Shown: positions 9,327 to 23,294 of the stretch, in pieces
How positions within the stretch are numbered: the stretch's first letter is position 1
How the letters are laid out: each line of letters begins with the position of its first letter
IMG/VR virus record: IMGVR_UViG_3300032321_002024
Coordinates: 198,604 to 262,603 of that record
Source: a virus
Taxonomy: Duplodnaviria > Caudoviricetes
Length of the DNA: 64,000 nucleotides
Strand: one strand, 5' to 3'
The notes under the pieces: model-generated
What the model saw: only the letters and a program-made list of their open reading frames with translations
Told to the model about the DNA's origin: nothing
Databases searched by the model: none
Translations under genes and position numbers: made by a program

Positions 9327-10751
9327 ATGAAGTTTCTACAAACATACGAAGGATTGAATAAGGCTTATAGAAATAAGTCACTACCACATGCTGGTGAACC
9401 AATTCACTCAGGTGATAAGATATCTATTTTACAACAAGACTGGTTCGAGAAACTTTTACCTGAAACTTTTACTATACACTCTAATCCAAATATTAAAAAA
9501 TTAAATAAAGACTTGACCATCACTGATATTGATGGAAATAAAGAATATGTTTTTGATAAAAATGAATGCACAATTGATAATGGATTAGTTCAGTTTAGTT
9601 ATTACTACAATAGTGCTGATCAACAAGATGAAAAAAACAAACATAAAAGACCAATACCATTAGATCCTAATTATGTTTTAGAAAATGGTGAGCCATCTAT
9701 GCTTGAATTTGACATACACTTTTCAAAAATAGGACAAGGTGATATTTTTGCAGAAGATGATGAAATAAAAATGCTTGTTGATATTACTTATGGTAATAAT
9801 ATGGCAGTTGAGTTTTCATTGGAAGCTCCTAATAAAATTAATATTGTTCATTATACATCAGTTGGGTCTAAATATGATTCAGAAACACACTGGGGTTTCA
9901 CTCATGAGTCAATCGATGACTTAGTAAAGTTTTTTAATGCGTTTAATCACGGTATAGAACTTACCTCTGATGATTTAAATTTTTTAGATGAAAACTATGA
10001 TAGTTATAAACATCAAGATGAAAATCCGAAACACCTTTATAATGATGATTCAGATTTAATTAAATTTGGAAATTCCTATGAAGAATCCTTCACTGAAAAA
10101 GAAGATATCTTTTTGATTATTAATAATGCTAAATCACCTTTATTTAAATATTTTCCAAAAGTTGCTAGATACTTAAGAGTAAAAGATATTCCTTATAAAG
10201 CAGCTTGTTCACCTGAAGAAGTTCAAAGATATAATCAAGAATATAATATTATTGGATGTTTTTCTACAGGTTCTGACTATAGTATGAAATCACCGGACTC
10301 AAAAGCAGAATTTGCGGCATCTGAGGAAGCACTAAGAATTTTAAAATGTCCTATACTAGCAATGTGTTATGGATTTCAATCAATGGTTAAGTTCTATGGA
10401 CAGAACGTTGATGGTGGTGAATTAAATTGTGGTTTATTTAACCTAACTGATTTTGATTCAGAACATTTTTTATTTAAGAATATTGACCTTACTGAACAAA
10501 AAGTTAATTTCTGTTTCCATGACTATCCGGTTAATGTTCCGGTTGACTTTGAAAATATTGCTATGTTAGGTGAGACAATAGCTGGGATATCTAATAAGAA
10601 TTTAAAAAGGTATGGAATACTTTTTCATCCAGAAGAATTAGAAGAAACTTGCATAATTTTAGATAATTTTGTTAATGAATGTAAAATTTCTACACCTACT
10701 AAATTACTAAAACTTCAAACTTTTGAAAATTTTATTAAAAAATCTTTGTAA
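9327..10751 (+). CDS. Protein with C-terminal class I glutamine amidotransferase domain and packaging-tag-like termini
   Basis: PILAMCYGFQ nucleophile elbow and FHPE motif; N-term MKFLQTYE, C-term LKLQTFENF; late motif at 9313-21. Confidence 0.75.
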   Translation: MKFLQTYEGLNKAYRNKSLPHAGEPIHSGDKISILQQDWFEKLLPETFTIHSNPNIKKLNKDLTITDIDGNKEYVFDKNECTIDNGLVQFSYYYNSADQQDEKNKHKRPIPLDPNYVLENGEPSMLEFDIHFSKIGQGDIFAEDDEIKMLVDITYGNNMAVEFSLEAPNKINIVHYTSVGSKYDSETHWGFTHESIDDLVKFFNAFNHGIELTSDDLNFLDENYDSYKHQDENPKHLYNDDSDLIKFGNSYEESFTEKEDIFLIINNAKSPLFKYFPKVARYLRVKDIPYKAACSPEEVQRYNQEYNIIGCFSTGSDYSMKSPDSKAEFAASEEALRILKCPILAMCYGFQSMVKFYGQNVDGGELNCGLFNLTDFDSEHFLFKNIDLTEQKVNFCFHDYPVNVPVDFENIAMLGETIAGISNKNLKRYGILFHPEELEETCIILDNFVNECKISTPTKLLKLQTFENFIKKSL

Positions 10752-10775
10752 AATAGAAACTTTTTTCTAAATTTG
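10745..10775 (+). promoter_or_regulatory. Bacteroidota sigma70-type promoter of the leader/tRNA operon
   Basis: TTTG (10745-48), 19-nt spacer, TAAATTTG (10768-75). Confidence 0.7.
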
Positions 10776-10823
10776 TATAGAAAATTGATAAACAAACAAA
10801 AATAATTGAATATATACTTAACA

Positions 10824-10916
10824 ATGAAAAACTTAAATGTAAATATCGTAGTAAATCAACAACCGCAGGATCAAGATCGTGTCGGAGTGGCTAACTATGT
10901 CTTTACAATAAGTTAA
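10824..10916 (+). CDS. Putative attenuator leader peptide MKNLNVNIVVNQQPQDQDRVGVANYVFTIS
   Basis: 30-codon ORF; CAA CAA CCG CAG GAT CAA GAT run at 10857-10877 matches the downstream tRNA-Gln/Pro/Asp. Confidence 0.75.
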   Translation: MKNLNVNIVVNQQPQDQDRVGVANYVFTIS

Positions 10917-10951
10917 AAATTTATATAACAAATTTGTAAAACCCGGTTAGT
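10890..10951 (+). promoter_or_regulatory. Putative antiterminator hairpin
   Basis: GCTAACT..GT.TTTACAA (10890-10908) pairs with TTGTAAA-AC..GGTTAGT (10934-10951), sequestering the 5' arm of the terminator. Confidence 0.65.
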
Positions 10952-10976
10952 AATCTAATCGGGTTTTTTTGTTTTT
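10938..10976 (+). terminator. Intrinsic (attenuator) terminator directly before tRNA-Asp
   Basis: ACCCGGTTAG-TAAT-CTAATCGGGT 10-bp stem plus T-tract. Confidence 0.85.
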
Positions 10977-10977
10977 A

Positions 10978-11049
10978 GGTCTATTAGGGTAGTGGTTATC
11001 CTTCCTCACTGTCTATGAGGAGACGCGAGTTCGATTCTCGCATAGACCG
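10978..11049 (+). tRNA. tRNA-Asp(GTC)
   Basis: Acceptor GGTCTAT/ATAGACC; anticodon loop CTGTCTA; T-loop TTCGATT. Confidence 0.9.
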
Positions 11050-11113
11050 CAAGTTGGGTTGTGAGTGACTTCCCGTTTTGGCTTAAGCCTTAGGTATGGA
11101 ACTCTCAAATTTT

Positions 11114-11186
11114 GGTCTATTGGTGAAATGGCTTATCATCCCACCCTGTCACGGTGGAGTAGACGGATCGTAACCGTCATAGACCG
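11114..11186 (+). tRNA. tRNA-Asp(GTC), second copy
   Basis: Acceptor GGTCTAT/ATAGACC; CCACC-CTGTCAC-GGTGG; atypical T-loop ATCGTAA. Confidence 0.85.
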
Positions 11187-11250
11187 CACAAAGTAACTGT
11201 TTGGTGGTGAAAGTACTCTTTAGGGAATAGAGTAAAATAATTCTCAAAAA

Positions 11251-11324
11251 CTAGGTGTAGCTCAGTTTGGTAGAGCGGGGAGTTTGGGACTCTCAGGCCG
11301 CAGGTTCGAACCCTGTCACTTAGA
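11251..11324 (+). tRNA. tRNA-Pro(TGG)
   Basis: CTAGGTG/CACTTAG; GGGAG-TTTGGGA-CTCTC; T-loop TTCGAAC. Confidence 0.9.
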
Positions 11325-11332
11325 CTTAAAAT

Positions 11333-11407
11333 TGTCCTGTAGTGAAATTGGCATCACGTATCATTTTGGCTGATAAGTTTGAGGTTCGAACCCTCACAGG
11401 ACAACCA
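11333..11407 (+). tRNA. tRNA-Gln(TTG) with encoded CCA
   Basis: TGTCCTG/CAGGACA; TATCA-TTTTGGC-TGATA; ends ACCA. Confidence 0.9.
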
Positions 11408-11465: not shown

Positions 11466-12281
11466 ATGGAATGGTCGGAAATTGAAATCAATTTTTTAAT
11501 TAATAATTATGAGAAAGGTGTGGATTTTTGCTCAAATGAGTTGAAAAGAACTAAATTGGGAGTTACAAAAAAATTAAAAAAATTAGGATTTAAATTTGTT
11601 AAAATTAAAGAAAAATATAGAAAAAATAATATAGAGATAATTATCAAAGAATCAAAAAGTATTGGAGAAGTTTTAGATAAATTAAATCTGAGAAGAGCGG
11701 GCGGTAACTATGCTGTTATAAAAAAATACATAATATTGTATAATTTAGATATAACACACTTTACAAACGAAAACAACTCTATATTCAATGTAGTTGAAAA
11801 TTTTGTTAAAAAGTCTTTAGAAACCTATCTAGTTGAGAATTCAACGGCATCGAGAGGAAATGTTAAGAGAAGATTGTTAGAAGAGAAAGTTTTAAAAAAT
11901 GTTTGTTCTCTATGTGGACAAGATGAAAACTGGAATGGAATGAATATCTCATTAATATTGGACCACATAAACGGAGTTTATAACGATAATAGATTAGAAA
12001 ATCTAAGAATTGTTTGTCCTAATTGTAATGCCGGATTAGATACACATGCTGGTAAAAACTCTAATAAAAAAGAAAGATCGAAAAAAATAATTGATAAGGA
12101 AATTGAAAAAAGATTGTATAATGAAGGAAGACGAAAGGTAGAGAGGCCTGATTACGAGGATCTAAAAGAAGATGTTTTAAAAAACGGATATTCAGCTACT
12201 GGTAGAAAATATGGAGTTAGCGATAATTCTATCAGAAAGTGGATAAGATACTATGAAAAAATATTAACAATTGAAAAATAA
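11466..12281 (+). CDS. HNH homing endonuclease
   Basis: CSLC...LDHINGVYNDNRLENLRIVCPNCN; C-terminal HTH (GRKYGVSDNSIRKW); free-standing next to the tRNAs. Confidence 0.85.
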   Translation: MEWSEIEINFLINNYEKGVDFCSNELKRTKLGVTKKLKKLGFKFVKIKEKYRKNNIEIIIKESKSIGEVLDKLNLRRAGGNYAVIKKYIILYNLDITHFTNENNSIFNVVENFVKKSLETYLVENSTASRGNVKRRLLEEKVLKNVCSLCGQDENWNGMNISLILDHINGVYNDNRLENLRIVCPNCNAGLDTHAGKNSNKKERSKKIIDKEIEKRLYNEGRRKVERPDYEDLKEDVLKNGYSATGRKYGVSDNSIRKWIRYYEKILTIEK

Positions 12282-22459: not shown

Positions 22460-23294
22460 TTTAACAGTCGGTTTCGGCTGACTGTGAAAAGAAGGGCGGC
22501 TTATAGTCCTTAAAATAAACTTCGAAAGGAGGATAAAGTGAATCCAAAGCAAAATGGATTTGCGTCTTGAAAGTTCTTCGGAACAATTGAGGTCGAGTAA
22601 GCAAGTGGGATACCACAAATTCTGAGTAGTCGAGGGTAACACTGTAGACCAAATGAGTTTGTGACCAGGCAATTGTAGATTGTTTGGTTGACCTCGGAAG
22701 AGGAATAGGAATAACCCATAGGTCTGTTGCGAGAAGTGTTGACTCACCGGTCTTCATCATTGCGGAGTCCAACTTAAGAGGTGTCTTAAAGTTGAAAGAC
22801 AATCAAGTGTACGGGTGGTGCTGTTACTTGACACTCTACTCTCTACCAGGAGAGTTGTTGTGAAGATATCTTAAAAAGTTGTGATGGAGGCATCACACGG
22901 AGTTGTCCAGTATTCCTGAGTTCAAAAGATTTGGGAGCTGAAAGGTAACCACAACTTCGACAAAATCTACAAAGCACTACAATTTAAATGTAAAAACTTA
23001 AATCGAAAGTGTTACCTAGTTACTGGTGAAAGGTACCTACTTAGTCGTGAGTGTTCACGGCCACTGAAGCTCGAAAGGCTGATGTGATTTCATCGAAAAG
23101 CTTATAGAGGGTCGAACCTCGAGTCAGCTCGCAAGGTTGAGTAAGTGGATTAAATGGAGAGTAATTAGTAACTTAAGGAGTGGTTAGTCTAACTAACCGG
23201 TATTGGCAGAATACTTCTCAAAAGGGAGTGGATAAGAAGGGAAACCATAATCTAACAAAAGTTCTGTCGTAATAAGGTGTAATCTCAACCTTTT
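22460..23294 (+). ncRNA. Large structured ncRNA (~830 nt), GOLLD-like candidate
   Basis: No + strand ORF; visibly more G/C-rich than flanks; UUCG/GNRA hairpins; long-range helix; flanked by tRNAs. Family assignment is inference. Confidence 0.65.

Follow-up and report, generated by a model that had tools for sequence, protein, structure and literature searches.

A predicted leader-peptide attenuator in front of a tRNA-Asp/Pro/Gln block of a giant phage, with control codons matching the tRNAs downstream

Introduction

Why should four phage tRNA genes be preceded by a short open reading frame (ORF) in which the codons for these very tRNAs stand side by side, and by a terminator that ends just before the first tRNA? 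What phage tRNA genes are for has been an open question for about 50 years, with codon compensation set against counter-defence. The unit studied here lies in a stretch of 64,000 nucleotides (the window; positions 198,604 to 262,603 of IMG/VR record IMGVR_UViG_3300032321_002024). A first-pass annotation had read it as a trp/his-type attenuator and knew of no leader-peptide attenuator acting on phage tRNA genes; our literature search, incomplete in its coverage, likewise found no leader-peptide attenuation of tRNA genes. The comparative tests reported below turned out as the attenuator reading predicts and support it strongly at the level of sequence. The unit is very probably a ribosome-mediated attenuator of the trp/his type whose output consists of the same tRNAs that decode its control codons.

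Results

The phage, its host and the surroundings of the tRNA block

The locus comes from a 262.6-kb virus record that is 84% complete and belongs to a giant (jumbo) phage. Genes for terminase and bS21 were found in this record; bS21 is also encoded by four relatives, one of them a complete genome with terminal repeats. A gene for RNA polymerase beta was not found in the three genomes checked, this record included, and the phage therefore likely uses the host RNA polymerase. An uninformative search for a T4-type portal gave no match. The host is probably a member of the Bacteroidota, since predictions name Bacteroidetes as hosts of the bS21 jumbo phages found in lakes (PMC9723584) and the TAnnTTTG motif upstream of the leader is the −7 box of Flavobacterium sigmaA (PMC9723704).

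The upstream neighbour of the unit is a glutamine amidotransferase-like gene. Directly 3′ of the tRNA block lies a gene for an HNH endonuclease (11466-12281; PHROG 10822, E 1e-43), an arrangement resembling T4 segB next to tRNA arrays. Further downstream, a GOLLD RNA (22898-23291; RF02032, 282 bits) is flanked by two tRNA-Met genes, each with a promoter but without a leader. The initiator-type Met tRNAs of the phage have no attenuator-like leader.

Promoter, leader ORF and control codons

The features of the unit are collected in Table 1.

Table 1. Features of the Asp/Pro/Gln unit, in window coordinates.
Feature	Position	Strand	Basis
Predicted Bacteroidota sigmaA-type promoter	10745..10775	+	−33 TTTG, −7 TAnnTTTG; motif only
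ATATA element	10812..10816	+	12-8 nt before ATG; present in 33/35 homologous leaders
Leader ORF, 30 codons	10824..10916	+	ATG 10824 to TAA 10916; frame and length conserved in 35 homologues
Segment 1, predicted protector strand	10830..10852	+	pairs with 10894-10914 when the ribosome is absent (minimum-energy folds)
Control codons Gln-Gln-Pro-Gln-Asp-Gln-Asp	10857..10877	+	conserved Q/P/D run
Segment 2, predicted antiterminator 5′ strand, inside the ORF	10890..10908	+	folding; inner-helix covariation
Segment 3, predicted antiterminator 3′ strand	10934..10951	+	overlaps terminator 5′ arm; folding
Intrinsic terminator (segments 3:4) with U-tract	10942..10976	+	z −5.6; compensatory stem variants in alignment A1
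tRNA-Asp(GTC)	10978..11050	+	non-canonical U37-A38 anticodon loop
tRNA-Asp(GTC), second	11114..11187	+	ARAGORN, Rfam
Conserved pseudoknot-like spacer RNA	11214..11245	+	within tRNA transcript
tRNA-Pro(TGG)	11251..11325	+	ARAGORN, Rfam
tRNA-Gln(TTG)	11333..11407	+	ARAGORN, Rfam

The promoter motif is found where it had been annotated and consists of TTTG (10745-48) and TAAATTTG (10768-75), separated by a spacer of 19 nt. The complete motif occurs only 27 times in the 262 kb (both strands), and three of these copies head tRNA leaders. In 33 of the 35 homologous leaders a −7 box lies at most 110 nt from the ATG. The ATATA element is present at 21% of the operon-first genes of this phage and at 0.3% of its internal ATGs. 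It marks real gene starts in this phage and gives indirect support to translation of the leader ORF, which we infer.

The ORF of 30 codons is likewise located as annotated, and the claim that its Gln, Pro and Asp codons are packed together proved correct, since all seven are contiguous (chance of contiguity approximately 1.5e-5). ARAGORN and Rfam both return the annotated tRNA set, and its anticodons match the control codons, with the refinement that four of the seven codons (CCG, CAG and GAT twice) would be read via wobble. The conserved Q/P/D run ends about four codons before the antiterminator strand. Early Asn, Val and Ile codons are conserved in the leader as well; the block contains no matching tRNA for these, and in the folding model a stall there would also open the switch.

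Folding of terminator and antiterminator

The terminator claimed by the first-pass annotation is present at its place and folds into a stem (10942-50/10955-63) that is followed by the U-tract (10964-76), with a z of −5.6 against shuffled sequences. A separate promoter in front of the first tRNA had been named as an observation that would speak against attenuation; between the terminator and tRNA-Asp there is room for none. The alternative helix between segments 2 and 3 is indeed the minimum-energy fold once the 3′ arm of the terminator is removed (−12.6 to −14.4 kcal/mol), and this helix by itself reaches a z of about −2. Without a ribosome the coding region is predicted to fold back on itself through segment 1, which leaves the terminator free. 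As modelled, segments 1 to 4 have the four-segment layout of trp-type attenuators. The protector pairing 1:2 is better than in codon-shuffled sequences in 27 of 35 homologues, and the signal is absent in several other leader groups.

In equilibrium folding the terminator always wins over the antiterminator, and the switch must therefore be kinetic, so that timing matters. Movement of the ribosome was modelled by masked folding, which is a crude approximation. In all four modelled leaders of the phage genome, sequestration of the terminator arm falls right after the last matched codon. For the Asp/Pro/Gln leader it shifts only from 0.8 to 0.5, and for the leader with Asn, Leu, Thr, Val, Ile and Cys codons it is back at 0.9 when the ribosome reaches the stop. 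The family averages of this model were mixed, with noise added by the "last control codon" rule, which often landed past the switch point. The annotated covering of segment 2 by a ribosome at the stop codon applies in part: positions 10896-10926 are masked, but the outer 6 nt stay free and a remnant of 6 bp can form.

Four sister units in the same genome

Altogether, five tRNA units with leader and terminator are encoded in the 262-kb phage, the Asp/Pro/Gln unit included. A leader rich in Arg, His, Lys, Phe, Ser and Trp precedes Phe/Lys/Lys/His/Trp/Arg/Ser/Ser tRNAs, and one rich in Asn, Thr, Leu, Val, Ile, Cys and Arg precedes Arg/Asn/Val/Ile/Cys/Thr/Leu tRNAs; these two blocks each have a promoter, a short ORF and a terminator. 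Glu/Tyr tRNAs follow a Tyr-Tyr-Tyr-Glu-Ala-Glu leader, and Ile(TAT)/Gly/Ala tRNAs follow an Ile/Ala/Gly leader. The codons of each of the four sister leaders match the tRNA block behind it. Behind the leader and terminator of the Glu/Tyr unit (L147:12870-13100; G000 C1:192869-193097) come a complete second promoter and then, before tRNA-Glu, a further small hairpin with a U-run.

Leader codons track the downstream tRNAs

A search of related phages for short ORFs with terminators in front of tRNA arrays, and for leader codon runs that covary with the downstream anticodons, had been proposed as a test. Leaders were collected on related huge-phage and metagenome contigs, which came from BLAST hits, pattern scans and ten related genomes covered across their complete tRNA regions. 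The rule used took no account of which tRNAs followed: an ORF had to start with ATG, span 13-45 codons and stop 18-60 nt upstream of a terminator with a tRNA behind it. In this way 129 distinct leaders were obtained. ARAGORN, run with a relaxed threshold, supplied the tRNA calls, and contig ends truncate some of the blocks.

The predicted covariation holds both across and within groups. Across the 129 leaders, 37% of the codons match the leader's own tRNA set and 17% match the sets of other leaders. Permutation of blocks gave no value as high in 200,000 rounds over 25 peptide clusters, and none in 500,000 rounds over 11 hand-merged groups. Within groups, gain and loss of tRNAs tracks gain and loss of codons in the control zone (Mantel-Haenszel odds ratio 6.1, z 5.2, to be taken as indicative, the rows being related and not independent). 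The share of matched codons peaks at 0.68-0.72 at five to nine codons before the antiterminator strand, against a background of approximately 0.13, and is at background from two codons before that strand. Such a spacing is expected if a stalled ribosome, with its footprint, must leave segment 2 free.

Pairing between the leader and its own terminator arm is stronger (−10.8 kcal/mol) than with the arms of other groups (−7.2) or with codon-shuffled leaders (−6.7), and the pairing strand sits in the 3′ part of the ORF. This short-arm duplex test missed the antiterminator of the Asp/Pro/Gln leader itself, which contains bulges and G-U pairs. The Asp/Pro/Gln family comprises 35 distinct homologues with ORFs of 27-34 codons and a stop codon 22-36 nt before the terminator. 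Lack of ORF conservation, another observation named in advance as adverse, is thus not what is seen in these homologues. The extended antiterminator folds in all 35 despite differing inner sequence. Since the search pattern fixed the outer helix and the terminator of most homologues, their conservation is circular and the inner helix alone was tested. Its own halves pair better than chimeras in 30 of 31 cases and better than shuffles in 31 of 31; the predicted inner antiterminator helix covaries.

A chance assembly of an AT-rich intergenic ORF, the terminator of the upstream gene and a tRNA cluster could account for a helix with a z of only about −2, and short ORFs are common. The permutation and covariation tests already refute it, 35 homologues conserve frame, spacing and covariation, and parallel units repeat the arrangement with other codons, which leaves this explanation a practically negligible probability.

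Second promoters and tandem leaders

A second promoter box follows the terminator in 6 of the 35 Asp/Pro/Gln homologues, in 7 of 12 leaders of the Leu/Arg/Pro/Asn type and in the Glu/Tyr unit, so that these tRNAs would not be wholly gated. Such promoters, together with the strength of the terminator, are what one might expect if the leader were a gene for a small RNA or small protein in front of a leaky constitutive terminator that sets a fixed low tRNA level, the antiterminator being opened by a phage protein or never. We consider this very improbable, as it leaves unexplained both the tracking of codons and anticodons across and within groups and the sharply defined distance of the matched codons from segment 2. 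Moreover, the leader peptide has no family match and is wholly different between blocks.

Many relatives have their Gln tRNAs relocated behind a separate poly-Gln leader. Eight of the 12 poly-Gln leaders lack a promoter box and lie 18-33 nt after the preceding tRNA (L001:21030-21150, L187, L188, L201 and others). From this we infer that they would act as second attenuators within one Asp/Pro transcript, and the sharing of the transcript may be why the first leader keeps its Gln codons.

Isoacceptor matching and rare codons

The matching extends to isoacceptors. For Ile, 61 of 65 readable cases match where 37 are expected, blocks with Ile-GAT having ATT/ATC codons and blocks with Ile-TAT having ATA. 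For Arg the match is 35 of 36 (18 expected), with CGY in front of Arg-ACG and AGA in front of Arg-TCT. Ser (63/85 versus 55 expected) and Leu (59/79 versus 53 expected) match weakly. The control zones of most leader groups are also strongly enriched in G-ending codons, which the phage otherwise uses rarely; these make up 32 of 85 control codons in the Asp/Pro/Gln family (9 expected) and 29 of 33 in the Asn/Leu/Thr/Val group (2 expected). This excess may raise sensitivity or serve RNA structure.

The same attenuator might sense only amino-acid starvation or general translation stress, the match between codons and tRNAs then reflecting amino acids. It is established that classical attenuators respond to uncharged tRNA in starvation, and the rare G-ending codons would heighten the sensitivity to any slowdown. 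A starvation-only purpose does not explain why the matching reaches the Ile and Arg isoacceptors, and additional tRNA would relieve a shortage of tRNA and not one of amino acids. We therefore regard it as rather unlikely. The sensor cannot separate starvation from tRNA loss, and the starvation explanation differs from ours only in the selective purpose.

The tRNA block and its spacer RNAs

In the first tRNA-Asp, U37-A38 replaces the usual A37-C38 of the anticodon loop. The U37-A38 loop occurs in 13 of the 73 Asp copies of relatives, where other variants are found too; the altered loop would fit evasion of anticodon nucleases.

Many Asp/Pro/Gln blocks contain a 32-nt element resembling an H-type pseudoknot, placed 5-7 nt upstream of the 5′ end of a tRNA and in some cases present in two copies (11214-11245 in the window; L001, L005-L008, L177, L182, L196, L199, L201, L206, L215 and others also have it). 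In L170, L200 and L225 a variant has lost one base from the loop and one from the pairing tail alike, which supports the pseudoknot. The element has no Rfam match. A preQ1-I riboswitch was rejected on that ground and because the ligand-pairing C is missing, judged by the preQ1-I consensus. Is the element a processing or protection signal? The spacer between the two Asp tRNAs (11051-11113) is GC-richer and folds into a branched hairpin (−13 kcal/mol); it has no match in the related loci.

Occurrence outside the related phages

Six matches to the exact Asp/Pro/Gln leader pattern, a pattern that diverged chromosomal versions would escape, were found in 185,579 prokaryote genomes; none of them combines a leader ORF with tRNAs, and they are chance matches. 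Two leaders compared with INPHARED matched no cultured phage; their matches were confined to LR745206 and LR756502, two uncultured huge phages. Among the Rfam leader families (Trp, His, Leu, Thr and Phe leaders; T-box) none scored above its gathering threshold, Trp_leader reaching 15 bits at a cut-off of 41. The 29 bits for L20_leader (cut-off 59) are sub-threshold as well and driven by the terminator. The paper on bS21 phages (PMC9723584) mentions neither leaders nor attenuation.

Discussion

Proposed mechanism

An upstream promoter motif, matched control codons, a terminator, a mutually exclusive covarying antiterminator and the stall geometry, the marks of an attenuator, are all found in the sequence. 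The host RNA polymerase would start at the Bacteroidota-type promoter, and a ribosome would translate the leader of 30 codons. With fast decoding of the Gln, Pro and Asp codons, the ribosome would cover segment 2, the terminator would form and transcription would stop one base short of tRNA-Asp. When the charged tRNAs are scarce, the ribosome would stall at the control codons, segments 2 and 3 would pair, and the polymerase would read through into the four tRNAs. These would read the stalling codons, and decoding capacity would thereby be under negative feedback. If the leader is not translated, the protector hairpin 1:2 would favour termination. Several such loops would run in parallel, one per tRNA block. 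Signs of leader-peptide attenuation have been described for amino-acid operons of Flavobacterium (PMC9723704).

The sensor reads ribosome speed alone, and tRNA cleavage, uncharging, loss of modification and heavy late demand could therefore all trigger it. Because the matching reaches isoacceptors and the output is tRNA, we favour tRNA supply as the purpose, and counter-defence is plausible. We lean slightly towards genome-wide, codon-resolved surveillance, in which the leaders would test-translate the codons of their block, detect host isoacceptors that are destroyed (e.g., by anticodon nucleases) or exhausted, and restock only those; tandem leaders would add logic within a transcript.

Under an on-demand, isoacceptor-matched switch, phage tRNAs would answer a shortfall in decoding instead of serving as a constitutive supplement, and the question of what they are for would become testable. 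Each leader would already be a reporter that signals when particular tRNAs are lost in the infected cell, and the leaders offer parts for codon-specific biosensors. Textbook attenuation would be extended to a closed loop, with tRNA genes governed by the reading speed of their own codons.

Comparison with known systems

With the attenuators of amino-acid operons (trpL, hisL, pheL, leuL) the phage unit shares the promoter, the ORF with clustered codons, the overlapping antiterminator and terminator and, probably, the protector; in the multivalent thrL and the ilvL of ilvGMEDA, several amino acids are likewise sensed by one leader. It differs in that it is located in a phage, in that its output is tRNA genes and not biosynthetic enzymes, in that parallel units partition the genetic code with matching at the isoacceptor level, and in lacking a match to the Rfam leader families. 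In the E. coli pheST attenuator (pheM leader) ribosome speed senses charged tRNA and raises the supply capacity. That system controls phenylalanyl-tRNA synthetase and responds to one amino acid, whereas the phage unit controls tRNAs. T-box riboswitches, like the phage unit, respond to the charging state of a specific tRNA via terminator and antiterminator. They work by direct binding of the uncharged tRNA, do not require an ORF and are blind to tRNA loss; the Asp/Pro/Gln unit has no T-box match in Rfam. T-boxes have been reported in front of clostridial tRNA genes and, if this is true, would be the nearest functional precedent.

The nearest documented case is the repressor-controlled trn array of Anabaena, which is mobile, repressed by TrcR and silent until translation stress (PMC8421152, PMC10272220); the term "attenuat" is absent from PMC8421152. 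There, a DNA-binding repressor acts on the whole array and is not codon-specific, whereas the phage unit is codon-matched, and its architecture points to attenuation as opposed to repression by a TrcR-type RHH protein. Phage tRNAs have been discussed as a counter-defence against anticodon nucleases, with nuclease-insensitive tRNAs proposed (PMC10264068). The passages considered here give host tRNA depletion in infection, a possible motive for the phage unit, and do not describe regulation of phage tRNA transcription. Set beside these systems, the phage unit is a known mechanism with a new output, the tRNA genes, and on a new scale.
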